A stretch of DNA of 64,000 nt, from the NCBI RefSeq assembly GCF_058153355.1, contig NZ_CM177019.1; one strand, written 5' to 3'. The notes below the pieces were generated by a model. That model ran no database searches. It worked only from the letters and a program-made list of their open reading frames with translations, and was not told the DNA's origin. Numbering within the stretch: position 1 is the first letter of the stretch; every line of letters starts with the position of its first letter. This document shows, piece by piece, positions 1 through 28,125 of the stretch. Position numbers and translations under genes: made by a program.

Positions 1-2313
1 ATGGCCGTTAAAGCCTCCGGGCGTTTTGTCCCTCCGTCAGCATTTGCTGCAGGCACCGGTAAGGCGTTTACCGGTGCTTATGCATGGAACGCGCCACGCG
101 AGGCTGTCGGGCGCGAAAGACCCCTTACACGTGACGAGATGCGTCAGGTGCAAGGTGTTTTATCCACGATTAACCGCCTGCCTTACTTTTTGCGCTCGCT
201 GTTTACTTCACGCTATGACTACATCCGGCGCAATAAAAGCCCGGTGCACGGGTTTTATTTCCTCACATCCACTTTTCAGCGTCGTTTATGGCCGCGCATT
301 GAGCGTGTGAATCAGCGCCATGAAATGAACACCGACGCGTCGTTGCTGTTTCTGGCAGAGCGTGACCACTATGCGCGCCTGCCGGGAATGAATGACAAGG
401 AGCTGAAAAAGTTTGCCGCCCGTATCTCATCACAGCTTTTCATGATGTATGAGGAACTCTGCGATGCCTGGGTGGATGCGCATGGCGAGAAAGAATCGCT
501 GTTTACGGATGAGGCGCAGGCTCACCTCTATGGTCATGTTGCTGGCGCTGCACGTGCTTTCAATATTTCCCCGCTCTACTGGAAAAAATACCGTAAAGGA
601 CAGATGACCACGAGGCAGGCATATTCTGCCATTGCCCGCCTGTTTAACGATGAGTGGTGGACTCATCAGCTTAAAGGCCAGCGTATGCGCTGGCATGAGG
701 CGTTACTGATTGCTGTCGGGGAGGTCAATAAAGACCGTTCTCCTTATGCCAGTAAACATGCCATTCGTGATGTGCGTGCGCGCCGCCAGGCAAATCTGGA
801 ATTTCTTAAATCGTGTGACCTTGAAAACAGGGAAACCGGCGAACGCATCGACCTTATCAGTAAGGTGATGGGCAGTATTTCTAATCCTGAAATTCGCCGG
901 ATGGAGCTGATGAACACCATTGCCGGTATTGAGCGTTACGCCGCCGCAGAGGGTGATGTGGGGATGTTTATCACGCTGACCGCGCCGTCAAAGTATCACC
1001 CGACACGTCAGGTCGGAAAAGGCGAAAGTAAAACCGTCCAGCTAAATCACGGCTGGAATGATGAGGCATTTAATCCAAAGGATGCTCAGCGTTATCTCTG
1101 CCGCATCTGGAGCCTGATGCGCACGGCATTCAAGGATAATGATTTACAGGCCTACGGTTTGCGAGTCGTCGAGCCACACCACGACGGAACGCCGCACTGG
1201 CATATGATGCTTTTTTGTAATCCACGCCAGCGTAACCAGATTATTGAAATCATGCGTCGCTACGCGCTCAAAGAGGATGGCGACGAAAGAGGAGCCGCGC
1301 GAAACCGTTTTCAGGCGAAACACCTTAACCGGGGCGGTGCTGCGGGGTATATCGCGAAATACATCTCAAAAAATATCGACGGATATGCACTGGATGGTCA
1401 GCTCGATAATGATACCGGCAGACCGCTGAAAGACACTGCCGCGGCTGTTACCGCATGGGCGTCAACGTGGCGCATCCCGCAATTTAAAACGGTTGGTCTG
1501 CCGACAATGGGGGCTTACCGTGAACTACGCAAATTGCCTCGCGGCGTCAGCATTGCTGATGAGTTTGACGAGCGCGTCGAGGCTGCACGCGCCGCCGCAG
1601 ACAGTGGTGATTTTGCGTTGTATATCAGCGCGCAGGGTGGGGCAAATGTCCCGCGCGATTGTCAGACTGTCAGGGTCGCCCGTAGCCCGTCGGATGACGT
1701 TAACGAGTATGAGGAAGAAGTCGAGAGAGTGGTCGGCATTTACGCGCCGCATCTCGGCGCGCGTCATATTCATATCACCAGAACGACGGACTGGCGCATT
1801 GTTCCGAAAGTGCCGGTCTTTGAGCCTTTGACTTTAAAAAGCGGCATCGCCGCGCCTCGGAGTCCTGTCAATAACTGTGGAAAGCCTGCCAGCAGTGATA
1901 CTTCGTTACCGGCTCCCACACCTTCTGAACATGCCGCAGCAGTGCTTAATCTGGTAGATGACGGTGTTATCGAATGGAGTGACCCGGAGGTTGTGAGGGC
2001 GCTCAGGGATGCATTAAAACACGGCCTGAAAACACCAAATCGTCAGCAAAGAAACGGAAGCCCGTTAAAACTACATGAAATAGCACCGTCGGCCAGACTG
2101 ACCAGGTCGGAACGAATGCAAATCACCCGTATCCGCGTTGACCTTGTTCAGAATGGTATCAGGCCTCAGCGATGGGAGCTTGAGGCGTTGGTTCGAGGAG
2201 CGAGAGTAAATTATGGTGATATGTCATTCAAATTTCCAATTGATGATCGATTTTATGATGATGTTAACTCTTTGAATTTATGGAGTATTGAGTCTCGTGT
2301 GAACTTCACATAA
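1..2313 (+). CDS. A: Phage replication initiation protein gpA (rolling-circle HUH endonuclease)
   Basis: 770-aa ORF; HxH motif (PHWHMML) and catalytic Tyr region (GYIAKYISKN); position before the A-cos cargo region as in P2. Last ~100 nt are AT-rich like the downstream cargo. Confidence 0.9.
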   Translation: MAVKASGRFVPPSAFAAGTGKAFTGAYAWNAPREAVGRERPLTRDEMRQVQGVLSTINRLPYFLRSLFTSRYDYIRRNKSPVHGFYFLTSTFQRRLWPRIERVNQRHEMNTDASLLFLAERDHYARLPGMNDKELKKFAARISSQLFMMYEELCDAWVDAHGEKESLFTDEAQAHLYGHVAGAARAFNISPLYWKKYRKGQMTTRQAYSAIARLFNDEWWTHQLKGQRMRWHEALLIAVGEVNKDRSPYASKHAIRDVRARRQANLEFLKSCDLENRETGERIDLISKVMGSISNPEIRRMELMNTIAGIERYAAAEGDVGMFITLTAPSKYHPTRQVGKGESKTVQLNHGWNDEAFNPKDAQRYLCRIWSLMRTAFKDNDLQAYGLRVVEPHHDGTPHWHMMLFCNPRQRNQIIEIMRRYALKEDGDERGAARNRFQAKHLNRGGAAGYIAKYISKNIDGYALDGQLDNDTGRPLKDTAAAVTAWASTWRIPQFKTVGLPTMGAYRELRKLPRGVSIADEFDERVEAARAAADSGDFALYISAQGGANVPRDCQTVRVARSPSDDVNEYEEEVERVVGIYAPHLGARHIHITRTTDWRIVPKVPVFEPLTLKSGIAAPRSPVNNCGKPASSDTSLPAPTPSEHAAAVLNLVDDGVIEWSDPEVVRALRDALKHGLKTPNRQQRNGSPLKLHEIAPSARLTRSERMQITRIRVDLVQNGIRPQRWELEALVRGARVNYGDMSFKFPIDDRFYDDVNSLNLWSIESRVNFT

Positions 2314-2367
2314 TATGGGGCCGTTGTAGGTGTTTGAATAATCAGACTTCAATTCAAAGGGATAATT

Positions 2368-3615
2368 ATGGTTATTTATCAAGGTGGTAAGATAATATCT
2401 GAAGATGATTTTTATTCTCATCTTTATTCGTTATGTCAGTTGGATAATGTAGGGGTTCTTTTAGGCGCGGGAGCATCGGTCGGATGTGGCGGCCAAACTA
2501 TGAAGCAGGTATGGCAGTTTTTTAAATATGAACATCCTGATCTATTGAATTTGTTACTAGAAAAATACTTATTGGTTGACAAAACTGAATCTGAACAAGA
2601 TATAGTTAATGTTGAGCTTCTAATTGATGAAGTAACTAAATTCTTGTCTGTGGCCAAAACAAGACGTAATGAAGACGAACAAAAAGAAATTAGTTTAATA
2701 TTAAGTGCTTTGTATAAACAAGTAACAAAGGCTGCATTGTTAACTGGAGAAGAGTTTGGTTGTAAAAATCAAGGGAAGAAAAAACAGTTTAAGTCTCATA
2801 AAGAATTAATTTCAAAGTTGATTTCAAATAGGCAGCCGGGACAATCGGCTCCGGCACTTTTTACTACCAACTATGATTTGGCATTAGAGTGGGCAGCTGA
2901 AGATTTAGGAATTCAGCTATTTAATGGTTTTTCAGGATTGCATACAAGACAATTTTATCCTCAAAATTTTGATTTGGCATTTAGAAATGTCAATGCAAAA
3001 GGGGAGGCTAGATTTGGTCATTATCACGCTTATCTATATAAATTGCATGGCTCTCTTACATGGTATCAGGATGATTTTTTAATAGTTAATGAGATAAGTG
3101 CATCTCAGGCATATGATAATTACATTAAAAATATTATTAATGGTGACGGTTTTTACTATGGTCAACATTTAATTTATCCGGGGGCTAATAAATATAGCCA
3201 TACAATTGGTTTTGTTTACGGTGAAATGTTTAGACGTTTTGGCGAGTTTTTGTCAAAACCTCAAACCGCTTTGTTTATTAATGGGTTTGGGTTTGGTGAT
3301 TATCATATAAACAGAATTGTTTTTGGTGCTTTGTTAAATCCGTCATTTCATGTTGTTATTTATTACCCTGATCTGGAGAATGCTTTAGATAAAGTTAGTA
3401 GAGGCGTTGCTTCTGAAGGTGAAAAGGCAATTGATGCTTTAAAAAATATGCAATTCAATCAAGTGACTATCGTGGGTGGGGGGGCAGATGCTTACTTTGA
3501 TAGTTTTGTGAAACATCTTCCTTATCCGGTGTTGTTCCCAAGAGAAAATACTGTTGATGACTTGGTTGAAGCTATTTCTAAATTGTCTAAAGGGGAAGGG
3601 AATGTCGCATTTTAA
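2368..3615 (+). CDS. SIR2-family (sirtuin-like, putative NAD+-consuming) protein, candidate defense effector
   Basis: 415 aa, AT-rich gene. Gly-rich dinucleotide-binding-like motif GAGASVGCGG (nt 2464-2493), TTNYD motif (nt 2863-2877), LHGS with candidate catalytic His (nt 3046-3048), matching SIR2_2-type signatures from memory. SD-like aagggataatt upstream. Confidence 0.7.
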   Translation: MVIYQGGKIISEDDFYSHLYSLCQLDNVGVLLGAGASVGCGGQTMKQVWQFFKYEHPDLLNLLLEKYLLVDKTESEQDIVNVELLIDEVTKFLSVAKTRRNEDEQKEISLILSALYKQVTKAALLTGEEFGCKNQGKKKQFKSHKELISKLISNRQPGQSAPALFTTNYDLALEWAAEDLGIQLFNGFSGLHTRQFYPQNFDLAFRNVNAKGEARFGHYHAYLYKLHGSLTWYQDDFLIVNEISASQAYDNYIKNIINGDGFYYGQHLIYPGANKYSHTIGFVYGEMFRRFGEFLSKPQTALFINGFGFGDYHINRIVFGALLNPSFHVVIYYPDLENALDKVSRGVASEGEKAIDALKNMQFNQVTIVGGGADAYFDSFVKHLPYPVLFPRENTVDDLVEAISKLSKGEGNVAF

Positions 3616-5422
3616 ACTATCTGAATTATCTGCTATTGGGTATGTCGTTGGTCTGGAGGGCGAAAAAATAAGGATAAATCTTCATGAAGGATTGCAAGGT
3701 AGGCTCGCCTCTCATAGGGATGGTGTTAGTTCTGTTACTCAGCCTGGAGATTTGATCGGTTTTGATGCCGGAAATATTCTGGTTGTGGCTCGAGTTACAG
3801 ATATGGCATTTGTCGAGGCTGATAAAGCACATAAGGCAAAAATAGGTACATCAGATATAGCAGATATGCCGTTAAGGCAAATAATAGCCTATGCAATAGG
3901 TTTTATTAGACGAGATATAGATGGATGTGTGTTTGTTTCGGAAGACTGGAGGTTACCTGCTCTGGGAGCATCCGCTGTCCCGTTAACATCTGATTTTTTA
4001 AATATCGTATATAGTATTGATAAAAATGATCTGGATAAAGCAATTGAGTTAGGAATAGATTCGAGGACTAAATCAGTTAAAATTTTAGCTAGCATTGATA
4101 AATTACTAACCAGGCATATGGCTGTTTTGGGCAGTACTGGATATGGTAAATCTAATTTTAATGCTTTACTTACACGCCGCATTTCAGAACAGTACCCTAA
4201 TGCAAGAATAGTAATTTTTGATATTAATGGCGAGTATTCTCAGGCTTTTGAAGGTGTTGCTAATGTTAAACATACTATTTTAGGTGAGTTACCAAAAGGA
4301 GAGTTTCCAAAACCACCTCTACAGAAAGGAGATATATTTTCTGAGAATGAACATTACTACTATAGAAAAATACCTTATCAAGCATTGGGATTTGCTGGGT
4401 TGATAAAATTACTACGCCCTAGTGATAAGACACAATTACCTGCATTAAGAAATGCGCTTAATGCTATAAATAGTGTTCATTTTTCCGATGATTCATTCTT
4501 TCTTAAGGATGAAGTAGGGGGCGTATTTAATATTTTTGATGATTGTAGAGATGAAGGGCAAGAGCTTTTATCTGCGTGGTTGAGTTTCTTAAGAAGAGGG
4601 ATGCTGTGTAAGGCAAATAAATGGCCGCCGTTTAAAAGTATTGCTAACTTGGTTGCGGAGTTTGGTTGCGTGGCGGCGGATTCGCGAAAAGCTGGATCTA
4701 GTAAACGAGATGCTTTTAGCTATGGTAATGTTCTGCCATTGATTAAGATAATTCAACAGTTATCAGAGGATTCTAGATTCAAGTATGTTGTTGATTTAAA
4801 TGGAGGTGGTGAATTATTAAGTGATGGCAAACATTGGGAATTAGCTATGAGACAGGAAGTTGATTATTTCTTTGGTAAAGAAAAGGGAGAGGAGAATGAC
4901 TGGAATATTCATATTGTTAATTTTAAGCATCTTTCACAAGATCATGCTCCAATGCTGTTAAGTGCATTATTAGAAATGTTTGCTGAAGTTCTCTTTCTTA
5001 GGGGGCAAAACAAAGCTTTTCCAACCGTGTTACTTCTTGAAGAGGCGCACCACTATTTAAGAGATCCTTATTCTGAAGTTGATGCACAAATTAAAGCTTA
5101 TGAAAGACTTGCTAAAGAAGGGCGTAAATTTAAATGTTCACTTATTGTGAGCACACAACGACCATCAGAGCTTTCATCAACAGTATTAGCAATGTGTGCA
5201 AATTGGTTTTCGTTGCGCCTGACAAATGAGCGTGATTTGCAGACTTTACGGTATGCGATGGAAAGTGGAAATGAGTTAATGATTCGGCAGATTTCTGGGC
5301 TTCCAAGAGGAGATGCAATAGCGTTTGGTGCTGCTTTTAATATACCCGTAAGAATTTCAATTCACCCTGCTGTACCCGGTCCGAGATCGTCTGACGCAAG
5401 TTATTCTCAAGAATGGCGATAA
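3602..5422 (+). CDS. HerA/FtsK-like P-loop ATPase, partner of the SIR2 protein
   Basis: About 606 aa from the ATG at 3602 (SD aggggaaggg just upstream; the track ORF starts at 3554). Walker A GSTGYGKS (nt 4130-4153), Walker B-like VLLLEEAHHY (about nt 5029-5058), STQRPSEL motif typical of HerA/VirB4-class ATPases. Start overlaps the SIR2 stop by 14 nt. Confidence 0.7.
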   Translation: MSHFKLSELSAIGYVVGLEGEKIRINLHEGLQGRLASHRDGVSSVTQPGDLIGFDAGNILVVARVTDMAFVEADKAHKAKIGTSDIADMPLRQIIAYAIGFIRRDIDGCVFVSEDWRLPALGASAVPLTSDFLNIVYSIDKNDLDKAIELGIDSRTKSVKILASIDKLLTRHMAVLGSTGYGKSNFNALLTRRISEQYPNARIVIFDINGEYSQAFEGVANVKHTILGELPKGEFPKPPLQKGDIFSENEHYYYRKIPYQALGFAGLIKLLRPSDKTQLPALRNALNAINSVHFSDDSFFLKDEVGGVFNIFDDCRDEGQELLSAWLSFLRRGMLCKANKWPPFKSIANLVAEFGCVAADSRKAGSSKRDAFSYGNVLPLIKIIQQLSEDSRFKYVVDLNGGGELLSDGKHWELAMRQEVDYFFGKEKGEENDWNIHIVNFKHLSQDHAPMLLSALLEMFAEVLFLRGQNKAFPTVLLLEEAHHYLRDPYSEVDAQIKAYERLAKEGRKFKCSLIVSTQRPSELSSTVLAMCANWFSLRLTNERDLQTLRYAMESGNELMIRQISGLPRGDAIAFGAAFNIPVRISIHPAVPGPRSSDASYSQEWR

Positions 5423-5576
5423 TCTTGTGGGAGAATGTAATAGGATAACGATAAGTGCATCTATCTGCATTAATTCGAATAAGGTTGAGAGGAGTTCAAA
5501 AACAAATTTAGACCGGCATTAGAGTGATTTAGATAGACATATGCAACTGCATTAAAACCGCCCCATGAAGCGGGCG

Positions 5577-5595
5577 GGCGAGGCGGGGAAAGCAC
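5577..5595. other. cos: Phage cos site (19-nt cohesive-end sequence)
   Basis: ggcgaggcggggaaagcac matches the P2 cohesive end as I recall it; lies next to the Q/P packaging genes as expected. Confidence 0.6.
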
Positions 5596-5737
5596 TGCGC
5601 GCTGGCGGTGGTGCTGATTTTATTTTTTCAGCGTCTGAGCGCGTCGTGATGGCGTTTAGATTGTTAGCCGGGGCGTTGGTGTGTCTGCGGGCTGTTTTGT
5701 GCGGTGGTGAGCGTGTGAGGGCGTGATGGCGGGGTGT

Positions 5738-5759
5738 AAAAAAGCCGCCCGCAGGCGGC
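5738..5759 (-). terminator. Rho-independent terminator downstream of Q
   Basis: On the minus strand: GC hairpin gccgcc-tgcg-ggcggc followed by a T-run, just past the Q stop. Confidence 0.55.
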
Positions 5760-5764
5760 GATGT

Positions 5765-6799
5765 TCAGCCGTTGTCAGTGTCCAGTGAGTAGTTTTTAAA
5801 GCGGATGACCTCCTGACCGAGCCAGCCGTTTATCTCGCGGATCCTGTCCTGTAACGGGATAAGCTCATTGCGGACAAAGACCTTTGCCACTTTCTCAATA
5901 TCACCCAGCGACCCGACGTTCTCCGGCTTGCCGCCCATCAACTGAAAGGGGATGCGGTGCGCGTCCAGCAGGTCAGCGGCGCTGGCTTTTTTGATATTAA
6001 AAAAATCGTCCTTCGTTGCCACTTCACTGAGCGGGATAATTTTAATGCCGTCAGCTTTCCCCTGCGGGGCATAGAGAAACAGGTTTTTAAAGTTGTTGCG
6101 GCCTTTCGACTTCACCATGTTTTCGCGAAGCATTTCGATATCGTTGCGATCCTGCACGGCATCGGTAACGTACATGATGTATCCGGCATGAGCGCCGTTT
6201 TCGTAATACTTGCGGCGGAACAGCGTGGCTGACTCATTCAGCCAGGCAGAGTTAAGGGCGCTGAGATATTCCGGCAGGCCGTACAGCTCCTGATTAATAT
6301 CCGGCTCCAGCAGATGAAACACGGAGCCAGGTGCGAAGGCTGTCGGCTCGTTGAAGGAAGGCACCCACCAGTAAACATCCTCCTCCACGCCACGGCGGGT
6401 ATATTTTGCCGGTGAGGTTTCCAGTCTGATGACCTTGCCGGTGGTGCTGTAACGCTTTTCCAGAAACGCATTGCCGAACACCAGAAAATCCAGCACAAAG
6501 CGGCTGAAATCCTGCTGGGAAAGCCACGGATGCGGGATAAATGTCGAGGCCAGAATATTGCGTTTGACGTAAATCGGGGAGCTGTGATGCACGGCAGCAC
6601 GCAGGCTTTTTGCCAGACCGGTAAAGCTGATTGGTGGCTCATACCATCTGCCGTTACTGATGCATTCGACGTAATCCAGAATGTCACGGCGGTCGAGTAC
6701 CGGCACCGGCTCACCAAAGGTGAATGCCTCCATTTTCGGGGCGCTGGCGGTCATTTTTTTTGCCGCAGGTTGCGGTGTTTTCCCTTTTTTCTTGCTCAT
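5765..6799 (-). CDS. Q: Portal protein gpQ
   Basis: 344 aa (P2 Q size); adjacent to cos; start overlaps the P stop (ATGA). Confidence 0.9.
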   Translation of the reverse strand: MSKKKGKTPQPAAKKMTASAPKMEAFTFGEPVPVLDRRDILDYVECISNGRWYEPPISFTGLAKSLRAAVHHSSPIYVKRNILASTFIPHPWLSQQDFSRFVLDFLVFGNAFLEKRYSTTGKVIRLETSPAKYTRRGVEEDVYWWVPSFNEPTAFAPGSVFHLLEPDINQELYGLPEYLSALNSAWLNESATLFRRKYYENGAHAGYIMYVTDAVQDRNDIEMLRENMVKSKGRNNFKNLFLYAPQGKADGIKIIPLSEVATKDDFFNIKKASAADLLDAHRIPFQLMGGKPENVGSLGDIEKVAKVFVRNELIPLQDRIREINGWLGQEVIRFKNYSLDTDNG

Positions 6800-8571
6800 C
6801 AGTAAAACTCCAGAATGGTGGATGTCAGCGGGGTGCTGATACCGGCGGTGAGTGGCTCATTTAACAGGGCGTGCATGGTCGCCCAGGCGAGGTCGGCGTG
6901 GCTGGCTTCCTCGCTGCGGCTGGCCTCATAGGTGGCGCTGCGCCCGCTGCTGGTCATGGTCTTGCGGATAGCCATAAACGAGCTGGTGATGTCGGTGGCG
7001 CTGACGTCGTATTCCAGACAGCCACGGCGGATAACGTCTTTTGCCTTGAGCACCATTGCGGTTTTCATTTCCGGTGTGTAGCGGATATCGCGCGCGGCGG
7101 GATAGAACGAGCGCACGAGCTGGAACACGCCGACACCGAGGCCGGTGGCATCAATACCGATGTATTCGACGTTGTATTTTTCGGTGAGTTTGCGGATGGA
7201 TTCTGCCTGAGTGGCAAAGTCCATGCCTTTCCACTGGTGACGCTCAAGGATCCTGAATTTGCCACCGGCCACCACCGGCGGTGCCAGCACCACGCATCCG
7301 GCGCTGTCGCCACGGTGTGACGGGTCGTAACCAATCCATACCGGACGTGAGCCGAACGGATTGGCGGCAAACGGCGCATAGTCTTCCCATTCTTCCAGCG
7401 TGTCGATCATGCAGCGTTGCAGCTCCTCGAACGGGAACACCGACGCCTTGTCGTCAACAAATTCACACATGAACAGGTTTTTAAAATCGTCGGCGCTGTT
7501 TTCGCGTTTGAGCTGCTCAATGTCGAACAGCGTGCAGCCGCCTTTCAGGGCGTCCTCAATGGTGACAATCTGCCGCCACTGGCCGTCCGCACAGAGAAGC
7601 CCACCGGCAAGGGCGTTATGACTGACGTCGATTTCCACGCGTTCAGCGGCGCTGGCGCGTCCCCGGTTAAACAGTTCACCCGACCAGAACGGGTAGGCGT
7701 CGTGCGCCAGCGTGGACGGGGTGGAGAAATAGGTCGAGCGCAGGTGACTCTGTGAGGCCATACCTGATGCCACCTTACGCAGTACCTGAAAATTCGGGAT
7801 CCAGAAAATCTCGTCGACGTACAGGTCGCCGTTATGGCTCTGTGCGGTGTTGGAGTTGGTGCCGAGAAAAATCAGTTTTGCGCCGTTATTGCCCAGGACA
7901 ATCGGGTCACCGGTCAGGTCAACGTCAACCAGCCGGGCAAAGGCGATGATGTATTCACGGAACACATACGCCTGCGTTTTACTGGCCGACAGAAAAATCT
8001 GGTTATGACCGGTTTTCAGGGCGCGCAGCAGCGCCTCGCGGGAAAAATAAAACGTCGCGCCAATCTGGCGGGATTTCAGGATATCGCGGATGCGGTGCTC
8101 AAGCCCGGCGCGATACCAGTGCAACTGATATTCGAAAGACTGCTCAAAGAAAATCTGCTCCAGCTTTTCGATGGCCTCGTCACTGAAAAAATTCTTTTTC
8201 GGTTTGCGACGCCCGCCTTTGTTGCGGTTAGCGACGTTCGGATTAAGGTCTGCCTCGTTGCCGGTCTGACTGTAACGGTTGACCCGTGCCAGTCGTTCAA
8301 TCTGGCGTCCGAGCAGGTCAATTTCCTTGAAGTCACCGCCGGTTTTCTGCGGTTTGATGATGAGCTGGGTCAGCCGCGCTTCCAGACTCATTTCGACACG
8401 GCTGATGGGGGCAACGCTGTCCCAGCCGTCGCGCTGTTTCCAGCTCTGCACCGTCGGGCGTTTCATCTGCAACATGGCGGCAATCTGCGGCACGGAAAAC
8501 CCCTGCCAGTACAGCAGCGCCGCCTGACGACGCGGGTCGTGTAAAAGAGTGGTGTCTGTGGTGATGGTCAT
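6799..8571 (-). CDS. P: Terminase large subunit (ATPase) gpP
   Basis: About 590 aa from the ATG at 8571 (SD gaggt); P2 synteny, divergent from O. Confidence 0.88.
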   Translation of the reverse strand: MTITTDTTLLHDPRRQAALLYWQGFSVPQIAAMLQMKRPTVQSWKQRDGWDSVAPISRVEMSLEARLTQLIIKPQKTGGDFKEIDLLGRQIERLARVNRYSQTGNEADLNPNVANRNKGGRRKPKKNFFSDEAIEKLEQIFFEQSFEYQLHWYRAGLEHRIRDILKSRQIGATFYFSREALLRALKTGHNQIFLSASKTQAYVFREYIIAFARLVDVDLTGDPIVLGNNGAKLIFLGTNSNTAQSHNGDLYVDEIFWIPNFQVLRKVASGMASQSHLRSTYFSTPSTLAHDAYPFWSGELFNRGRASAAERVEIDVSHNALAGGLLCADGQWRQIVTIEDALKGGCTLFDIEQLKRENSADDFKNLFMCEFVDDKASVFPFEELQRCMIDTLEEWEDYAPFAANPFGSRPVWIGYDPSHRGDSAGCVVLAPPVVAGGKFRILERHQWKGMDFATQAESIRKLTEKYNVEYIGIDATGLGVGVFQLVRSFYPAARDIRYTPEMKTAMVLKAKDVIRRGCLEYDVSATDITSSFMAIRKTMTSSGRSATYEASRSEEASHADLAWATMHALLNEPLTAGISTPLTSTILEFY

Positions 8572-8744
8572 GAATACCTCGCCGTGATGAATACACGGCA
8601 AGGCTACTGAGTCGCGCCCCGCGATTCGCTAAGGTGCTGTTGTGTCAGTGATAAGCCATCCGGGACTGATGGCGGAGGATGCGCATCGTCGGGAAACTGA
8701 TGCCGACATGTGACTCCTCTAATCACTATTCAGGACTCCTGACA

Positions 8745-9599
8745 ATGGCAAAAAAAGCATCAAAATTCTTTCGTATCGGCGTTGAGGGTGACACCTGTGA
8801 CGGGCGTGTCATCAGTGCGCAGGATATTCAGGAAATGGCCGAAACCTTTGACCCGCGAGTCTATGGTTGCCGCATTAACCTGGAACATCTGCGCGGCATC
8901 CTGCCTGACGGTATTTTTAAGCGTTATGGTGATGTGGTCGAACTGAAGGCCGAAAAGATTGACGATGATTCGGCGCTGAAAGGCAAATGGGCGCTGTTTG
9001 CGAAAATCACCCCGACCGATGACCTTATCGCGATGAACAAGGCCGCGCAGAAGGTCTATACCTCAATGGAAATTCAGCCGAACTTTGCCAATACAGGCAA
9101 ATGTTATCTGGTGGGTCTGGCCGTCACCGATGACCCGGCAAGCCTCGGCACGGAATACCTGGAATTCTGCCGCACGGCAAAACACAACCCTCTGAACCGC
9201 TTCAAATTAAGCCCTGAAAACCTGATTTCAGTGGCAACGCCTGTTGAGCTGGAATTTGAAGACCTGCCTGAAACCGTGTTCACAGCCCTGACCGAAAAGG
9301 TGAAATCCATTTTTGGCCGCAAACAGGCCAGCGATGACGCCCGTCTGAATGACGTGCATGAAGCGGTGACCGCTGTCGCTGAGCATGTGCAGGAAAAACT
9401 GAGCGCCACTGAGCAGCGCCTTGCTGAGATGGAAACCGCCTTTTCCGCACTTAAGCAGGATGTGACTGACAGGGCGGATGAAACCAGTCAGGCATTCACC
9501 CGCCTGAAAAACAGTCTCGACCACACCGAAAGTCTGACCCAGCAGCGCCGCAGCAAAGCCACCGGCGGTGGCGGTGACGCCCTGATGACGAACTGCTGA
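8745..9599 (+). CDS. O: Capsid scaffold protein gpO
   Basis: 284 aa from MAKKASKFF (track ORF starts at 8679); P2 size and position. Confidence 0.85.
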   Translation: MAKKASKFFRIGVEGDTCDGRVISAQDIQEMAETFDPRVYGCRINLEHLRGILPDGIFKRYGDVVELKAEKIDDDSALKGKWALFAKITPTDDLIAMNKAAQKVYTSMEIQPNFANTGKCYLVGLAVTDDPASLGTEYLEFCRTAKHNPLNRFKLSPENLISVATPVELEFEDLPETVFTALTEKVKSIFGRKQASDDARLNDVHEAVTAVAEHVQEKLSATEQRLAEMETAFSALKQDVTDRADETSQAFTRLKNSLDHTESLTQQRRSKATGGGGDALMTNC

Positions 9600-9657
9600 C
9601 CGGCGTCAGTCAGTCCGGGAAAACCTTCACGATTAACTCTTAATTTCAGGAAAAACT

Positions 9658-10731
9658 ATGCGCCAGGAAACCCGCTTTAAATTTAATGCCTACCTGTCCC
9701 GTGTTGCCGAACTGAACGGCATCGACGCCGGTGATGTGTCGAAAAAATTCACCGTTGAACCGTCGGTCACCCAGACCCTGATGAACACCATGCAGGAGTC
9801 CTCTGACTTTCTGACCCGCATCAACATTGTGCCGGTCAGCGAAATGAAAGGGGAAAAAATTGGTATTGGTGTCACCGGCTCCATCGCCAGCACCACCGAC
9901 ACCGCCGGTGGCACCGAGCGTCAGCCGAAGGACTTCTCGAAGCTGGCGTCCAACAAGTACGAATGCGACCAGGTTAACTTCGATTTTTATATCCGCTACA
10001 AAACGCTGGACCTGTGGGCGCGTTATCAGGATTTCCAGCTCCGTATCCGTAACGCCATTATCAAACGCCAGTCCCTTGATTTCATCATGGCCGGTTTTAA
10101 CGGCGTGAAGCGTGCCGAAACCTCTGACCGCAACAGTAATCCGATGCTGCAGGATGTGGCGGTCGGCTGGCTGCAGAAATACCGCAATGAAGCCCCGGCG
10201 CGCGTGATGAGCAAGGTCACTGACGAGGAAGGCCGCACCACCTCTGAGGTTATCCGCGTGGGTAAGGGCGGTGATTATGCCAGCCTTGATGCACTGGTGA
10301 TGGATGCGACCAACAACCTGATTGAACCGTGGTATCAGGAAGACCCTGACCTTGTGGTGATTGTGGGGCGTCAGCTACTGGCGGACAAGTATTTTCCCAT
10401 CGTCAACAAGGAGCAGGACAACAGCGAAATGCTGGCCGCTGACGTCATCATCAGCCAGAAACGCATCGGCAACCTGCCGGCGGTACGCGTCCCGTACTTC
10501 CCGGCGGATGCGATGCTCATCACGAAGCTGGAAAACCTGTCCATCTACTACATGGATGACAGCCATCGCCGCGTGATTGAGGAAAACCCGAAACTCGACC
10601 GCGTGGAGAACTACGAGTCAATGAACATTGATTACGTGGTGGAGGACTACGCCGCCGGTTGTCTGGTGGAAAAAATTAAAGTCGGTGATTTCTCCACACC
10701 GGCTAAAGCGACCGCAGAGCCGGGAGCGTAA
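9658..10731 (+). CDS. N: Major capsid protein gpN
   Basis: 357 aa; P2 size and position. Confidence 0.9.
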   Translation: MRQETRFKFNAYLSRVAELNGIDAGDVSKKFTVEPSVTQTLMNTMQESSDFLTRINIVPVSEMKGEKIGIGVTGSIASTTDTAGGTERQPKDFSKLASNKYECDQVNFDFYIRYKTLDLWARYQDFQLRIRNAIIKRQSLDFIMAGFNGVKRAETSDRNSNPMLQDVAVGWLQKYRNEAPARVMSKVTDEEGRTTSEVIRVGKGGDYASLDALVMDATNNLIEPWYQEDPDLVVIVGRQLLADKYFPIVNKEQDNSEMLAADVIISQKRIGNLPAVRVPYFPADAMLITKLENLSIYYMDDSHRRVIEENPKLDRVENYESMNIDYVVEDYAAGCLVEKIKVGDFSTPAKATAEPGA

Positions 10732-10734
10732 CCG

Positions 10735-11478: not shown

Positions 11479-11577
11479 CAACCGAATGCGCCCCGCGCCA
11501 GGGCGGCACGCCGGTCAGTGAGGGTGAATCACCTGACACTGCACCGGCGTCCACCGCCCGACTTTTCAGAGGTAGTC

Positions 11578-12290: not shown

Positions 12291-12293
12291 CGC

Positions 12294-12575
12294 ATGACAG
12301 CAGAAGAAAAAAGCGTCCTGTCGCTTTTCATGATTGGGGTGCTGATTGTTGTCGGCAAGGTGCTTGCCGGTGGTGAACCCATCACCCCGCGTCTGTTTAT
12401 CGGGCGCATGTTGCTCGGTGGTTTTGTCTCGATGGTTGCCGGTGTTGTTCTGGTGCAGTTTCCTGACCTGTCACTGCCTGCGGTGTGCGGCATCGGCTCC
12501 ATGCTGGGTATCGCCGGTTATCAGGTGATTGAGATTGCCATTCAGCGCCGCTTTAAGGGCAGGGGGAAACAGTAA
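12294..12575 (+). CDS. Y: Holin gpY
   Basis: 93 aa with hydrophobic transmembrane segments; first gene of the lysis cassette. Confidence 0.8.
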   Translation: MTAEEKSVLSLFMIGVLIVVGKVLAGGEPITPRLFIGRMLLGGFVSMVAGVVLVQFPDLSLPAVCGIGSMLGIAGYQVIEIAIQRRFKGRGKQ

Positions 12576-13072
12576 TGCCGGTAATTAACACGCATCAGAA
12601 TATCGCCGCCTTTCTCGACATGCTGGCCGTGTCCGAAGGGACGGCGAATCATCCGCTGACGAAAAACCGGGGCTATGACGTGATAGTCACCGGACTGGAC
12701 GGAAAGCCGGAAATTTTCACCGACTACAGTGACCACCCGTTCGCACATGGCCGACCGGCGAAGGTGTTTAACCGTCGCGGTGAAAAATCCACGGCCTCCG
12801 GTCGCTATCAGCAGCTTTACCTGTTCTGGCCGCACTACCGCAAACAGCTTGCCCTGCCGGATTTCAGTCCGTTGTCACAGGACAGACTTGCCATTCAGTT
12901 GATCCGCGAACGCGGTGCACTGGATGACATCCGGGCGGGACGTATTGAGCGCGCCATTTCACGCTGTCGCAATATCTGGGCGTCCCTGCCGGGTGCCGGT
13001 TACGGTCAGCGTGAGCATTCACTGGAAAAACTGGTCACCGTCTGGCGTACCGCCGGCGGCGTACCGGCTTAA
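12575..13072 (+). CDS. K: Endolysin gpK (lysozyme family)
   Basis: 165 aa; lambda R-like lysozyme signature (SEGT...GYDV); P2 position. Confidence 0.85.
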   Translation: MPVINTHQNIAAFLDMLAVSEGTANHPLTKNRGYDVIVTGLDGKPEIFTDYSDHPFAHGRPAKVFNRRGEKSTASGRYQQLYLFWPHYRKQLALPDFSPLSQDRLAIQLIRERGALDDIRAGRIERAISRCRNIWASLPGAGYGQREHSLEKLVTVWRTAGGVPA

Positions 13073-13086
13073 ACGGAGTAAACACC

Positions 13087-13512
13087 ATGAAGAAATTATC
13101 CCTTTCACTGATGCTGAACGTGTCGCTGGCGCTGATGCTGGCACTGTTCCTGATTTACCCGCAGAGCGTGGCCGTCAGTTTTGTCGCCACCTGGGCGATT
13201 CTGGCGACGGTTATCTGTGTGGTTGCCGGTGGTGTCGGCGTGTATGCCACTGAGTATGTACTTGAACGCTACGGGCGGGAGCTGCCGCCGGAATCGCTGG
13301 CCGTGAAGATTGTCACGTCGCTGTTTTTGCAGCCGGTGCCGTGGCGCAGACGGGCGGCGGCTCTGGTGGTGATGGTGGCGACATTTATCTCGCTGGTCGC
13401 CGCCGGGTGGATTTTTACCGCGCTGATTTACCTCGTGGCGTCGGTGTTCTTCTGGCTGATACGTACGGCCTGCCGTCAGCGTTTTGAGGGGCGGGAGCTA
13501 TGTCAAGGCTGA
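13087..13512 (+). CDS. lysA: Lysis timing membrane protein LysA
   Basis: 141 aa, multiple hydrophobic helices; P2 position. Confidence 0.7.
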   Translation: MKKLSLSLMLNVSLALMLALFLIYPQSVAVSFVATWAILATVICVVAGGVGVYATEYVLERYGRELPPESLAVKIVTSLFLQPVPWRRRAAALVVMVATFISLVAAGWIFTALIYLVASVFFWLIRTACRQRFEGRELCQG

Positions 13513-13925
13513 TGATTGTACTGATTGTGTTGTTATCGCTGGCGTTGGCGGGTCTGTTTCTGGTGAAACACAAAAATGCCAGCCTGCGCGCTTCGCTGGA
13601 CAGGGCGAACAGCGTCGCCAGCGGGCAGCAGACGACCATCACCATGCTGAAAAATCAGCTTCATGTTGCGCTCACCAGGGCAGACAAAAACGAGCTGGCG
13701 CAGGTGGCACTGCGTCAGGAACTGGAGAACGCCGCGAAGCGTGAAGCACAGCGCGAGAAAACCATCACGAGGTTACTCAATGAAAACGAAGATTTTCGCC
13801 GCTGGTACGGTGCTGACCTGCCTGATGCTGTGCGCCGGTTGCACCAGCGCCCGGCCTGCACTGACGCCAGTGATTGTCCCCAACGCCTGCCCGAAAGTGA
13901 GTCTTTGCCCGATGCCGGGCAGTGA
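13500..13925 (+). CDS. lysB: Rz-like spanin LysB
   Basis: 141 aa, N-terminal TM then coiled-coil-like region; P2 position. Confidence 0.75.
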   Translation: MSRLMIVLIVLLSLALAGLFLVKHKNASLRASLDRANSVASGQQTTITMLKNQLHVALTRADKNELAQVALRQELENAAKREAQREKTITRLLNENEDFRRWYGADLPDAVRRLHQRPACTDASDCPQRLPESESLPDAGQ

Positions 13926-14070
13926 CCCGGAGACGAACGGCGATTTAAGTGCCGATATCCGGCAGCTTGAGAACGCGCTGGCACGCTGTGCCAGCCAGGT
14001 AAAAATGATTAAACACTGTCAGGACGAAAACGATGCTCAAACCCGACAGCCTGCGCAGGGCGCTGACTGA
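13780..14070 (+). CDS. lysC: Rz1-like outer-membrane lipoprotein spanin LysC, out of frame, start embedded in lysB
   Basis: 96 aa from MKTKIFAAGTVLTCLMLCAGCTS (lipobox LCAGC), Pro-rich; start lies within lysB in another frame, as in P2. Confidence 0.65.
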   Translation: MKTKIFAAGTVLTCLMLCAGCTSARPALTPVIVPNACPKVSLCPMPGSDPETNGDLSADIRQLENALARCASQVKMIKHCQDENDAQTRQPAQGAD

Positions 14071-14945: not shown

Positions 14946-15011
14946 TTGTGCCATTCCCGACACCTCATCGTCACATTGCCGCCGGTATGACCCGGCGGCA
15001 TCCTTCCCGTT

Positions 15012-17427: not shown

Positions 17428-17437
17428 GTGAGGAATA

Positions 17438-19648
17438 ATGAGCACAAAATTCAGAACCGTTATCACCACTGCCGGTGCAGCAAAGCTGGCAGCGGCAACC
17501 GCGCCGGGAGGGCGGAAGGTCAACATTACCACGATGGCCGTCGGGGATGGCGGTGGTAAATTGCCTGTCCCGGATGCCGGACAGACCGGGCTTATCCACG
17601 AAGTCTGGCGACATGCGCTGAACAAAATCAGCCAGGACAAACGAAACAGTAATTATATTATCGCAGAGCTGGTTATTCCGCCGGAGGTGGGCGGTTTCTG
17701 GATGCGTGAGCTTGGCCTGTACGATGATGCGGGAACGTTAATTGCCGTGGCGAACATGGCCGAAAGTTATAAGCCTGCCCTTGCCGAAGGCTCAGGGCGT
17801 TCGCAGACCTGCCGTATGGTCATCATCGTCAGCAGTGTGGCCTCAGTGGAGCTGACCATTGACACCACAACGGTGATGGCAACGCAGGATTATGTTGATG
17901 ACAAAATTGCAGAGCACGAACAGTCACGACGTCACCCGGACGCCTCGCTGACCGCAAAAGGTTTTACTCAGTTAAGCAGCGCGACCAACAGCACGTCTGA
18001 AACACTGGCCGCAACGCCGAAAGCGGTAAAGGCCGCCTATGACCTTGCTAACGGGAAATATACCGCACAGGACGCCACCACAGCGCGAAAAGGGCTTGTC
18101 CAGCTCAGTAGCGCCACCAATAGCGATTCTGAAACGCTCGCCGCAACACCAAAAGCGGTAAAAGCAGCGTATGACCTTGCTAACGGGAAATATACCGCAC
18201 AGGACGCCACCACAGCGCGAAAAGGCCTTGTCCAGCTCAGTAGCGCCACCAACAGTGATTCTGAAACGCTTGCAGCAACGCCAAAGGCGGTAAAGGCAGC
18301 ATATGACCTTGCTAACGGGAAATACACTGCACAGGACGCCACCACAGCGCGAAAAGGTCTTGTCCAGCTCAGTAGCGTCACCAACAGTGATTCTGAAACC
18401 CTCGCGGCAACGCCAAAAGCAGTGAAGTCTGCCTATGACAATGCTGAAAAACGTCTTCAGAAAGATCAGAACGGTGCGGATATTCCGGGAAAGGATACCT
18501 TCACGAAAAATATCGGTGCCTGTCGTGCTTATAGCGGCGCTTTGAGCACTGAAGCCGGAAACTGGACAACCGCGCAGTTTATTGACTGGCTAGAGTCTCA
18601 GGGAGCCTTTAATCATCCCTACTGGATGTGCAAGTGTTCCTGGTCATACGGTAATAACAAAATTATTACCGATACTGACTGTGGGACGATTCATCTTGCA
18701 GGTTGCGTGATTGAGGTTATGGGTGTTAAAGCAGCAATGACCATTCGTGTGACCACTCCGAGTACATCAAGCAGTGGTGGTACCACCAGTGCGCAATTCA
18801 CGTATATCAATCACGGAGCTGATTATGCGCCGGGCTGGCGACGCGACTACAATACGAAAAATAAGCAACCGGCTTTTGCATTAGGGAAAACAGGAAATAC
18901 GGTTGCAAATAATAAAGCAGTAGGATGGAACTGGGACAGTGGTGCTTATTGTGCACAGGATGGCGGAGCATCAAAAATGGTGCTGCATTTTTACACGGGT
19001 GAGGGAAGTTGTCCGGCAATGCAGTTTCTTGTGGATTATAAAAACAGGGGGATTTTTTACAGGTCGGCACGTGATGGGTATGGATTTGAGGCTGACTGGT
19101 CAGAGTTTTATACCACATCACGAAAGCCAACACCTGCGGATATTCTTGCTCTGGCATTATCAGGCGGAAGCATGTCAGGCAGCATAAAATTTATCAATGA
19201 TGCCTTCCTGATTTGGGAAAGAAACACTGACTGGGCGAAAATTGGATTTAAAAATGATTCAGATGCTGATTCTGACTCATTCATGTGGTTTGAAACTGGT
19301 GATAATGGCAATGAATATTTTAAATGGCGCATCAGGTCTGGCAGCACAACAAAAGATCTGATGACGCTTAAGTCTGATGCACTACGGGTTACCGGGCAGG
19401 TGATACCATCAAATTTCAGCAATTTTGACTCCCGCTATGTCAGGGATCTCCGGCTTGGTGGTGCCGCCACATACAAACCTGCGAACAATGGCATGACATG
19501 GACACATCAGGCACCGTCCGGGTGTGTATATACCGGCATTATTGTTCAGGATACCGGCTCAAACTCTGCCGATAACATTGGTGGCGTATATTACAGACCG
19601 GTGCAGAAATACATTAACGGGACATGGTACAACGTGGCGCAGGTATAA
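17438..19648 (+). CDS. H: Tail fiber protein gpH, with internal tandem repeats and a lower-GC distal domain
   Basis: 736 aa; conserved N-terminus, about four copies of a ~44-aa repeat, then an AT-richer C-terminal receptor-binding region. Confidence 0.85.
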   Translation: MSTKFRTVITTAGAAKLAAATAPGGRKVNITTMAVGDGGGKLPVPDAGQTGLIHEVWRHALNKISQDKRNSNYIIAELVIPPEVGGFWMRELGLYDDAGTLIAVANMAESYKPALAEGSGRSQTCRMVIIVSSVASVELTIDTTTVMATQDYVDDKIAEHEQSRRHPDASLTAKGFTQLSSATNSTSETLAATPKAVKAAYDLANGKYTAQDATTARKGLVQLSSATNSDSETLAATPKAVKAAYDLANGKYTAQDATTARKGLVQLSSATNSDSETLAATPKAVKAAYDLANGKYTAQDATTARKGLVQLSSVTNSDSETLAATPKAVKSAYDNAEKRLQKDQNGADIPGKDTFTKNIGACRAYSGALSTEAGNWTTAQFIDWLESQGAFNHPYWMCKCSWSYGNNKIITDTDCGTIHLAGCVIEVMGVKAAMTIRVTTPSTSSSGGTTSAQFTYINHGADYAPGWRRDYNTKNKQPAFALGKTGNTVANNKAVGWNWDSGAYCAQDGGASKMVLHFYTGEGSCPAMQFLVDYKNRGIFYRSARDGYGFEADWSEFYTTSRKPTPADILALALSGGSMSGSIKFINDAFLIWERNTDWAKIGFKNDSDADSDSFMWFETGDNGNEYFKWRIRSGSTTKDLMTLKSDALRVTGQVIPSNFSNFDSRYVRDLRLGGAATYKPANNGMTWTHQAPSGCVYTGIIVQDTGSNSADNIGGVYYRPVQKYINGTWYNVAQV
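17950..18440 (+). repeat. In-frame tandem repeats (~132 bp x ~3.8) inside tail fiber gene H
   Basis: Repeated peptide GLVQLSSATNSxSETLAATPKAVKAAYDLANGKYTAQDATTARK; copies differ at synonymous sites, so the array is not a very recent duplication. Confidence 0.8.
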
Positions 19649-19651
19649 TTT

Positions 19652-20179
19652 ATGCAGCATTTGATAAATATAACGGCAGGTAATCCAAAAACGGTTGAAC
19701 AATATCAATTGACAAAGGACTTTGATGTTGTCTGGTTTTTTTCAGAAGATGGTAAGAACTGGTACGAAGAACAAAAGTATTTTGCTGATGACACGATAAA
19801 AATAGCGTACGACAAAGATAATATCATCCGCTATGTGGAAAAGGATGTGACAGCTATCAGACCGGATGGATTAAGTGTGGTTGAAGTGGCTGATATTACT
19901 GCTAATCGACGGGCGGACATTTCAGGGGGCTGGATGTTTAAGGACGGCAAAGTGATTAAACGCATTTATACGGCAGAGGAATTGCAGAAGCAGACAGAAA
20001 ATCGGAAAGCCAGACTTCTTGCAGATGCTGAATCCGTGATTTTGCCGCTGGAGCGCGCTGTCAGGCTGAATATGGCAACAGATGAGGAGCGTAGCCGACT
20101 GGAAGCATGGGAACGCTACAGTGTTCTGGTCAGCCGTGTGGATCCTGCAAATCCTGAATGGCCGGAAATGCCGCAATAA
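19652..20179 (+). CDS. G: Tail fiber assembly chaperone gpG
   Basis: 175 aa, AT-rich like the H distal domain; P2 position. Confidence 0.75.
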
Positions 20180-20568: not shown

Positions 20569-21096
20569 ATGGACTGGAAAGATCTTGCATCAACCGCTGT
20601 GTATACAGGTATGACTGATGAAAATGAAAGCATATGGGAACGTGTTGATGGGGTTGACGTTGCCTTCATAGGTGCCTTTCTTACTGCGCACTTGAGCCTT
20701 GAAAAGTATATTACTGATTATCTTGGATTAAGATATCCTTCGTTAGCTTGGGGTGATGCAAAACTCACATTTTCACAAAAAATAGCTTTAATACAACATG
20801 AGCCTGCAAAATCCCCTTATGATGAAATATATTTAAGAATAAAAGACTTTAACAGCATAAGAAATAAAATCAGTCATCAATTGAATTATCAGATTACGGA
20901 TAAAGAAAAAAGTAAGTTTGTGGACTTCTACATGAAGATTACTAAAGCCAGTAAAACTAAACCAAATATTGATATTGATAACATGGCAGATTTGTTGGAT
21001 TTTTTCGTATCGATGACAAAATCCTATTTTGCTAGTGCTATTTCTTATTATCACTATAATAAAAAGGTTGCAGGTAAAAGTAATAAAATTGATTAA
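20569..21096 (+). CDS. Hypothetical protein with HEPN-like Rx4H motif; candidate single-gene anti-phage or abortive-infection cargo at the Z/fun hotspot
   Basis: 175 aa, strongly AT-rich, between G and FI. R98-N-K-I-S-H103 (nt 20860-20877) fits the Rx4-6H motif of HEPN RNase domains. SD aaaaggataaagc-ATG. Confidence 0.5.
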   Translation: MDWKDLASTAVYTGMTDENESIWERVDGVDVAFIGAFLTAHLSLEKYITDYLGLRYPSLAWGDAKLTFSQKIALIQHEPAKSPYDEIYLRIKDFNSIRNKISHQLNYQITDKEKSKFVDFYMKITKASKTKPNIDIDNMADLLDFFVSMTKSYFASAISYYHYNKKVAGKSNKID

Positions 21097-21271
21097 TAAA
21101 ACTGGACTTAGGGATAATTAATATATAGACGTTCTATCATTTTTAGAGTGTGCGGCAGCTCCATACATTCATGCGGATGTCAGCACCTCGCTCAAAGCAG
21201 ACAGTCAGATTTGATAGCGTTTGGACTATGTAAATAGTCAGTTGGAAAATGAGTGAGTACAAATCAGGACA

Positions 21272-21296
21272 GGCGGGCGAATTGCCCGCCTTTTCT
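21272..21296 (+). terminator. Rho-independent terminator at the end of the Z/fun cargo region
   Basis: ggcgggc-gaatt-gcccgcc hairpin followed by ttttctttat. Confidence 0.5.
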
Positions 21297-21394
21297 TTAT
21301 CTGTTGTTTCATCCACTGACCAGCCAGGTCAAATAGCGCCTCATACTCTGCACAACAGAAAATAATTGCACCCATTAACCACGGAGTTAAACGG

Positions 21395-23172: not shown

Positions 23173-23448
23173 ATGAACAAAGAAAATGTCATTACCCTGG
23201 ACAATCCGGTCAAACGTGGTGAGCAGGTTATCGAACAGGTCACGCTGATGAAACCCAGTGCGGGGACGCTGCGCGGTGTCAGCCTGGCAGCGGTCGCGAA
23301 CTCCGAAGTCGATGCACTGATTAAGGTGCTGCCGCGCATGACGGCACCGATGCTGACCGAGCAGGAAGTCGCCGCGCTGGAACTGCCTGACCTTGTGGCG
23401 CTGGCCGGTAAGGTGGTCGGTTTTTTGTCGCCGAACTCGGTGCAGTGA
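23173..23448 (+). CDS. E: Tail assembly chaperone gpE (in-frame product)
   Basis: 91 aa; slippery run near the 3' end. Confidence 0.8.
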   Translation: MNKENVITLDNPVKRGEQVIEQVTLMKPSAGTLRGVSLAAVANSEVDALIKVLPRMTAPMLTEQEVAALELPDLVALAGKVVGFLSPNSVQ

Positions 23449-23600
23449 CGTTTCCAAAAAATCTCTCGGTCGATGACCTGATGGCGGATGTGGCAGTGAT
23501 ATTTCACTGGCCGCCATCAGAACTGTATCCCATGAGCCTGACCGAACTCATCACATGGCGCGAAAAGGCGCTCCGGCGAAGCGGAAACACGAATGAGTAA
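23173..23600 (+). CDS. E': gpE+E' extended product via -1 programmed frameshift at T6G
   Basis: Hand translation of the -1 frame from the ttttttg run gives ...FVAELGAVTFPKN...ELYPMSLTELITWREKALRRSGNTNE, stop at 23598-23600, overlapping the T start. Confidence 0.7.
23421..23427 (+). promoter_or_regulatory. -1 programmed ribosomal frameshift slippery site (TTTTTTG)
   Basis: ttttttg run in E, 21 nt before the E stop, with an open -1 frame downstream; the conserved G-T chaperone-type frameshift of tailed phages. Confidence 0.7.
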
Positions 23601-26040: not shown

Positions 26041-26054
26041 GGAGGTGACGAAAA

Positions 26055-27697: not shown

Positions 27698-27778
27698 TAT
27701 CTTTTATTTATCTGTTTGTTTTATAAGGATAAATTAACTAAAATGACACCATCAACAAAACCGGAAGAGGTGCTCGCG

Positions 27779-27997: not shown

Positions 27998-28008
27998 TTA
28001 CATACAGG

Positions 28009-28034
28009 AAGCCCCTCAGTCGAGGGGCTTTTTT
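28009..28034 (+). terminator. Rho-independent terminator after ogr
   Basis: gcccctc-agtc-gaggggc hairpin followed by tttttt. Confidence 0.6.
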
Positions 28035-28098
28035 GTCGATGTGGTCAATGTGTGGACGTGACCAGAAATAAATCCTTTTATTTCATTGTATTACGCGT

Positions 28099-28125
28099 AA
28101 AAAATAAGCCCGTGTAAGGGAGATT
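28099..28125. other. attR: Prophage attR core (P2 att core sequence)
   Basis: aaaaaataagcccgtgtaagggagatt matches the P2 att core as I recall it; coincides with the cyaR terminator. Confidence 0.6.

Follow-up and report, generated by a model that had tools for sequence, protein, structure and literature searches.

An apparently complete P2-type prophage at cyaR with a SIR2-HerA locus and an uncharacterised gene as cargo

P2-like prophages at the small RNA (sRNA) gene cyaR are known from Escherichia coli W (Wphi2) and E. coli B (P2*B), with ogr-D' at the corresponding place in K-12, and these occurrences were tabulated in 2011 (PMC3032704). Between genes A and Q such phages possess a cargo hotspot, for which Rousset et al. 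counted 18,150 loci in E. coli (PMC9122126). Here we describe a 64,000-nucleotide (nt) stretch of contig NZ_CM177019.1 (RefSeq assembly GCF_058153355.1), hereafter the window, of which positions 1-28125 hold the right-hand 88% (~28 kb) of a 31.8-kb P2-type prophage with two cargo loci, a SIR2-HerA gene pair and an uncharacterised gene encoding a protein of 175 amino acids (aa). In our judgement this element is likely to be an intact prophage that Int integrated at a core overlapping cyaR, complete and undamaged as far as sequence can tell, and most likely the product of a very recent infection. Both P2-like cyaR prophages and their cargo hotspots have been described before (PMC3032704; PMC9122126); the finding, although correct, is ordinary, and its value lies mostly in annotation.

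The closest described elements

Phage P2 (NC_001895) shares with the element the gene order from int to ogr, and, H and G apart, its late proteins show 93-100% identity to those of the element. Identity is complete for C, Cox, Ogr, Y, K, E and the E+E' fusion, and extends to the 19-nt cos sequence, the replication origin (ori), the region of the late promoters PP and PO, and the 27-bp attachment (att) core. On this comparison, the immunity and integration modules are P2's own type. The two phages differ in their accessory positions: P2 has old, tin and orf91 where the element has SIR2-HerA, and fun(Z) where the element has the 175-aa open reading frame (ORF). In addition, the element is without orf30 and departs from P2 in the PV spacer, the tip of the tail fibre H and the C-terminal tail of gpA, while G is 74% identical.

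Phages fiAA91-ss (NC_022750) and PhiR44_1 (PV340563) have in common with the element the orf30-less spacer between S and V and the PF region, and fiAA91-ss also its H tip and G (~97% nt identity). Their immunity and integrase modules differ from those of the element, and their cargo consists of cdt-V in fiAA91-ss and of Dcm plus paraMORC3 in PhiR44_1.

The closest complete record is the PEC395 prophage (NZ_CM168010.1, 1744250-1776052), which occupies the same site and displays the same 31,776-bp architecture, the same two cargo loci and exact cores at both ends. Over window 1-28125 it is 99.1% identical with 0 indels; the 250 substitutions between them are concentrated in two blocks (Q-M and FI-T), a pattern resembling recombination among P2-like phages, and the Prokaryotic Genome Annotation Pipeline (PGAP) calls zero pseudogenes in the prophage. 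The host flank of PEC395 differs in lacking the yegP-yegQ island of the window and in being ~93% identical across baeS-mdtD. At the opposite extreme stands K-12 MG1655, which, as an earlier note on this DNA had stated, carries at the same position ogrK and yegZ only: the interval between cyaR and yegR is PR-X, 629 bp comprising ogrK and the yegZ pseudogene, a fragment of D, where the element described here is full length. Across complete E. coli genomes, a P2-like A-to-Q segment is matched in 2,237 of 5,426 (~41%).

Integrity, left end and recent mobility

Between gene A and attR, window 1-28125 runs collinear with P2. A tblastn search with every P2 protein, combined with direct translation, finds all 28 of the P2-homologous genes in this interval uninterrupted, each possessing a start codon, one terminal stop and zero internal stops. 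Full-length matches of 93-100% identity are obtained for A, Q, P, O, N, M, L, X, Y, K, lysA, lysB, lysC, R, S, V, W, J, I, FI, FII, E, T, U, D and ogr. G is likewise matched over its full length, at the lower identity given above, and H is a mosaic whose N-terminal 251 aa are 96% identical to P2 and whose tip is different. Gene lengths equal those of P2 except for H (736 versus 669 aa) and A (770 versus 761 aa), and the late block retains its order of Q-P, O-N-M-L-X-Y-K-lysABC-R-S, V-W-J-I-H-G, FI-FII-E-E'-T-U-D and ogr. These results bear out the earlier note's account of full-length P2-like packaging, head, lysis, tail and late-regulator genes, together with its statements that cos is present, as an exact 19-mer, and that the E/E' frameshift is intact, the simulated -1 fusion at the T6G motif (E+E', 142 aa) being identical to that of P2. 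Within the window, tblastn yields no match for the P2 genes int, C, cox, orf78, B and orf80-83, nor for the non-essential genes orf30, fun(Z), orf91, tin and old.

The guanine-cytosine (GC) fraction is 0.55-0.60 from position 1 to ~28.1 kb, broken by two AT-rich islands at ~2.3-5.4 kb (GC 0.35-0.38) and ~20.2-21.2 kb (GC 0.37). Among phage records, megablast gives the best matches to fiAA91-ss (83% coverage, 97% identity) and P2 (78%, 96%). Reconstruction of the full prophage yields 31,803 bp including both cores, corresponding to a phage genome of 31,776 bp with a GC fraction of 0.513. By BLAST identities over length, this genome is ~78% similar to P2, a value held down because the cargo is replaced and the fibre tip is different. 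The genus is delimited by at least 70% nucleotide similarity to P2 and the species Peduovirus P2 by at least 95%, and the reconstructed genome lies above the first line and below the second. On every point that can be tested in this way, the element is a P2-type temperate prophage of the genus Peduovirus (Peduoviridae). None of its alleles is private: exact copies of every phage protein in the window exist elsewhere, for example on 17 contigs for R, 550 for V, 19 for FI and 16 for T.

The earlier note had placed the element at 1-28125 and called it apparently complete. Its right end is correct, as 28125 is the last base of attR. Position 1, however, falls inside the element, on the start codon ATG of gene A; the stretch from attL to orf83 (3,678 bp, with int, C, cox and B) lies outside the window, so that completeness is not readable from the window alone. 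The RefSeq record NZ_CP151009.1 opens at this very base of the same prophage; orf83 spans its origin, and int to orf82 stand at the end of the record. Probably the record analysed here was also rotated to the gene A start codon, the window would then be its first 64 kb, and the start of the window is no biological boundary; the arrangement suggests rotation software that wrongly treats P2 gpA as marking the replication start, splitting the prophage over the two ends of a record. Records or windows that open at gene A would, on this account, be rotation artefacts concealing the left end of a prophage. In several other records the D-baeS region lies at ~25-37 kb, compatible with a start at or near gene A.

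The left end was sought in proxy contigs retrieved by exact-protein look-ups with the BaeS allele and then the YegR allele of the lineage; the YegS allele, too common (80 blocks) and leading to other strains only, is unfit as a lineage tag. The BaeS allele of the window occurs on 5 contigs only. Logan contig SRR31441161_89 is 100.000% identical to window 22664-43145, and positions 7266-13239 of Logan contig SRR31441161_25 equal window 1-5974 with zero mismatches. Because 26.4 kb are perfectly identical, we infer that these contigs and the window share one source. Upstream of A, SRR31441161_25 contains orf83, orf82, orf81, orf80, B, orf78, cox, C, int and an exact attL core (3588-3614), all intact. 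B is 97.6%, Cox 100%, C 100% and Int (337 aa) 99.7% identical to P2, and the 3,678-bp early region as a whole is collinear with P2 at 98.6% identity (53 substitutions, 0 indels); the C-cox control region contains 2 of the substitutions, the annotated operators and promoter hexamers 0. An early module is also present in PEC395, and a full one precedes A in most related loci examined. The upstream genes and attL whose loss or disruption would have spoken against a complete prophage are thus all present and undisrupted in the proxy contigs.

At the other end, P2 homology stops at the att core, which lies within the 3' end of cyaR and is overlapped by the cyaR terminator. The integration site is situated between yegR and cyaR/yegQ, and the same 27-mer forms attL both in SRR31441161_25 and in PEC395. 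A tRNA gene as the integration target was considered and rejected, there being zero tRNAs in the window; the target is an sRNA gene.

In GCA_043012465.1 and SRR28786219, two isolates that belong to this host lineage, the site is unoccupied, the order being yegQ, cyaR, one core, yegR. The right flank of the empty site is 100.000% identical to window 28099-44067 (15,969 bp) and the left flank 100% identical to SRR31441161_25 31-3614 (3,584 bp). Lysogen and non-lysogen consequently differ by the prophage plus one copy of the core, with 0 single-nucleotide polymorphisms in ~19.5 kb of flanking sequence. Prophages 99.9-99.98% identical are found at the same site in hosts whose gatD-yegS flank is ~95% identical to that of this lineage (for example, locus L010). 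Empty sites with identical flanks, taken with near-identical prophages in divergent hosts, point to a very recent acquisition by infection. Both cargo loci lie between attL and attR and are absent from the empty-site siblings with identical flanks, which upholds the earlier proposal that the prophage is their vehicle and makes both attributable to a mobile, probably active phage. The same proposal held a functional temperate phage to be plausible, and the intact genes, the intact early region of the proxy contigs and the presence/absence polymorphism all argue for it. The best reading is a viable, recently transmitted phage, which would be expected to produce virions.

Several observations weigh against that reading. 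An intact sequence is no proof of viability, since missense and regulatory defects are invisible to sequence reading. The presence/absence difference may reflect precise excision (curing) rather than gain, which would still require active Int and Cox. The early region and attL lie outside the window and were taken from perfectly matching contigs whose origin in the same isolate we infer, and the PV region and the IHF-site part of the P arm deviate from P2, both variants occurring in other phages or prophages. Finally, some close relatives show decay: the late genes of CM132283.1 are deleted, and CP148535.1 is without int and Q calls. The prophage might accordingly look intact and still be cryptic, with one or more missense or regulatory mutations blocking excision, replication, assembly or lysis and leaving a fixed carrier of defence genes. 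Such decay within the same lineage, the K-12 remnant as an end state at the same site, and the fact that function is unreadable from sequence all favour this possibility. It is nonetheless unlikely in our estimation, as comparison with P2 and PEC395 reveals zero stops, frameshifts or indels, each protein allele is common to other genomes, and the empty sites and near-identical copies described above denote mobility within approximately zero divergence time.

The remaining alternatives concern the unseen left end and the origin of the polymorphism. Because the window stops at the gene A ATG, the source might differ from the SRR31441161 contigs through an insertion sequence, an early-gene deletion or a rearrangement, in which case the element would be truncated. 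This is very unlikely given 0 mismatches over the 26.4 kb of two contigs that include the rare BaeS allele, a break that coincides with the gene A ATG, just like that of the rotated NZ_CP151009.1, where the early genes stand at the end, and the full early module before A in most related loci. We consider it highly improbable that homologous recombination of a chromosomal segment, without infection or Int excision, produced the polymorphism and rendered it uninformative on phage activity. The surrounding region is recombinogenic, with baeS-mdtD ~93% identical to PEC395 and other parts of the window 98% identical to E. coli genomes. However, on either side the flanks of lysogen and non-lysogen are 100% identical as far as the 27-bp core, the flanks in hosts known to carry the near-identical prophage diverge by ~5%, and an imported segment would bring donor flank sequence, none of which is seen.

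As a viable phage, the element would be predicted to follow the life cycle of P2. Integration would proceed by Int-mediated recombination at the 27-bp core, after which the C repressor, identical to that of P2, would hold the promoter Pe off. P2-type C repressors do not respond to SOS induction. Cox, Int and IHF would excise the prophage, gpA would nick ori within its own gene and, aided by gpB, drive rolling-circle replication, and Ogr would switch on the late operons from PP, PO, PV and PF. The terminase (P and M) would cut at cos, capsids would assemble from N, O, Q and L, a contractile tail would form from FI, FII, T, E/E', the baseplate proteins V, W, J and I and the fibre proteins H/G, and Y, K and LysABC would lyse the cell. 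The publicly available lysogen and non-lysogen with identical flanks would serve as an indicator pair.

Among the relatives, CM132283.1 (locus L008, 15423-16732) encodes an identical gpA and retains int to A plus SIR2-HerA; Q to D are lost and the cargo nearly abuts ogr, so that the defence system persists in a decayed derivative. CP148535.1, the closest complete-genome prophage (4 mismatches and 1 gap in 12.3 kb), shows a 1-bp indel in each of the int and Q regions (locus L009, 6322-7557 and 15423-16797), either real decay or homopolymer error. Next to the core of the empty attB site, towards yegR (locus L019, reverse complement of ~5335-5435; SRR31441161_25, 3500-3587), a hairpin is followed by ~65 bp that are ~70% identical to the ogr terminator and P arm of the phage (window 27998-28098). 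The "empty" site may itself be the fossil of an older P2-type right end.

The two cargo loci

The cargo occupies two known variable positions of P2, the A-Q interval and the place of fun(Z) between G and FI. In the first, between A and cos, lie two overlapping genes. The product of the upstream gene contains Pfam SIR2_2 and matches PDB entry 8j4u_A over 415 aa (770 bits); that of the downstream gene contains Pfam DUF87 and matches 8j4u_M (1071 bits). Like the described SIR2-HerA system (Nezha; PDB 8j4u, 8su9), the island consists of two overlapping genes, for proteins of 415 and 606 aa, matched in full length and with zero differences detected at the sequence level. The island is, by these matches, the known SIR2-HerA anti-phage system, recognised here from sequence alone. 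SIR2-HerA homologues provide phage resistance through depletion of nicotinamide adenine dinucleotide (NAD+) (PMC11514289; PMC11472057).

The gene in the second position encodes a protein with zero Pfam or PADLOC matches that belongs to phrog_5483, a family of unknown function. Its 23 homologues, all from Enterobacterales, are all hypothetical proteins. Across 18 aligned homologues the string DFNxIRNKISH is invariant and includes an R-x4-H motif (R98-N-K-I-S-H103), within the range of R-x4-6-H that defines the HEPN catalytic motif. A profile of the family searched against PDB gives a weak local match to HepS (9oij_A; E 0.022 over 38 aa) centred on R-x4-H, and Pfam HEPN_Swt1 matches 1 of the 18 members, weakly (E 0.17). 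HepS is a HEPN abortive-infection protein (PMC13043305). An AlphaFold2 model of the 175-aa protein is all-alpha with a predicted local distance difference test (pLDDT) score of 57, a quality too poor for a fold search. We tentatively raise the possibility that this gene encodes an undescribed single-protein abortive-infection nuclease of HEPN type in P2-like phages, distantly related to HepS of Gifsy-1; it constitutes a lead of only mild novelty.

Features of the element and host surroundings

Table 1. Coordinates of prophage features and of cyaR in the window
Feature	Coordinates	Strand	Remarks
Gene A, rolling-circle replication initiator, 770 aa	1..2313	+	Window starts on ATG
ori (nick-site region), inside gene A	1852..1872	+	GCGCCTCGGAGTCCTGTCAAT
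Cargo 1a, SIR2 NADase effector, 415 aa	2368..3615	+	PADLOC SIR2 PDLC02186, E 3e-188
Cargo 1b, HerA ATPase, 606 aa	3602..5422	+	PADLOC HerA PDLC02185, E 6.5e-272
cos cohesive end, 19 nt	5577..5595	+	GGCGAGGCGGGGAAAGCAC, exact P2 cosL/cosR match
Q, portal, 344 aa	5765..6799	-	99% identical to P2, intact
P, large terminase, 590 aa	6799..8571	-	99.7% identical to P2, intact
PP/PO divergent late promoters and Ogr binding site	8572..8744	.	174/174 nt identical to P2 2994-3167
O (scaffold), N (major capsid), M (small terminase), L (head completion), X; 284, 357, 247, 169, 67 aa	8745..12290	+	97.6-99.4% identical to P2, all intact
Lysis cassette Y (holin), K (endolysin), lysA, lysB, lysC	12294..14070	+	All intact; Y, K 100% and lysA/B/C 93-96% identical to P2
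R, S, tail completion, 155 and 150 aa	14033..14945	+	98% identical to P2
S-V spacer (PV region), without P2 orf30	14946..15011	+	66 nt
Baseplate V, W, J, I; 211, 115, 302, 176 aa	15012..17427	+	96-99% identical to P2, intact
H tail fibre (736 aa, mosaic tip) and G fibre-assembly chaperone (175 aa)	17438..20179	+	Pfam Phage_tail_fib, Phage_fiber_2, gp37_C, Caudo_TAP
Cargo 2, uncharacterised 175-aa protein	20569..21096	+	P2 fun(Z) position, G-FI; GC 0.37
PF late-promoter region, 5' of FI	21235..21394	+	Near-identical to PhiR44_1, fiAA91-ss
FI tail sheath, FII tail tube, 396 and 172 aa	21395..23116	+	98-99% identical to P2, intact
E, E+E' tail chaperones	23173..23600	+	-1 frameshift at T6G, 23421-23427
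T tape measure, U, D; 815, 159, 387 aa	23593..27697	+	98-99% identical to P2, intact
ogr late-gene activator, 72 aa	27779..27997	+	100% identical to P2 Ogr
ogr/F-operon terminator hairpin, then attP left (P) arm, Int and IHF sites	28008..28098	+	Aligns with P2 24265-24355
attR core, 27 bp	28099..28125	+	AAAAAATAAGCCCGTGTAAGGGAGATT, exact P2 attP core
cyaR sRNA gene (host)	28102..28187	-	Rfam RF00112, 100.7 bits, E 6e-19

The gpA protein, an exact copy of which is found in 858 index blocks, is 95% identical to P2 over 751 aa ahead of a divergent C-terminal tail, and conserves the HUH motif (HHDGTPHWH) and the tyrosines of YIAKYISK. The 21 nt of ori are those annotated as ori in fiAA91-ss and those of P2 around its nick site at 29892. 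The cos 19-mer sits next to Q, and the flanking cos region aligns with P2. The S-V spacer yields no alignment with the PV region of P2 itself; its sequence equals that of PhiR44_1, the record of which names E. coli C as host, and is 1 nt off that of fiAA91-ss. A reading of this spacer as a defect was rejected, since PhiR44_1 carries the identical sequence. In the PF region the proximal 40 nt are identical to P2, and in the ogr promoter region 6 of 82 nt differ from it. The Int-arm part of the P arm is identical to P2, the IHF-site part has several substitutions, and the whole is identical in PEC395.

The tip of H together with G is 96.8-97.3% identical at the nucleotide level to fiAA91-ss and to a Peduovirus P2 isolate, and both proteins are identical in PEC395. 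Within H, direct repeats of ~132 bp with 85-89% identity span window 17969-18439 (four stretches of Pfam Phage_fiber_2); the repeat is likely a point at which short-read contigs break and a hotspot of fibre recombination.

Downstream of the prophage, a variable island between yegQ and yegP (window 29727-31427) has no counterpart in PEC395 or K-12. Its 245-aa ORF corresponds, at 91% identity, to the C-terminal half of a HEAT-repeat protein of 466 aa in related strains; in place of the N-terminal half stands an unrelated 270-aa ORF with weak TPR matches, for which a search for exact-protein records found none. The adjoining yegP-baeR-baeS-mdtD segment (window 31399-36073) is ~92.8% identical to PEC395. 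In window 26-34 kb most complete E. coli genomes are 90-95% identical, with a best coverage of 89%, and at 46-56 kb identity reaches 98.3%. On these comparisons, yegP-mdtD is a locally divergent or recombinant segment of the host. Three tandem Sib antitoxin RNAs (RF00113, 136-140 bits each) lie 5' of mdtA in window 43191-43989, and the neighbouring contigs carry three Ibs toxin ORF calls. Farther along, a JUMPstart element (RF01707) at window 59984-60022 is positioned 5' of a large plus-strand operon at ~60.2 kb.

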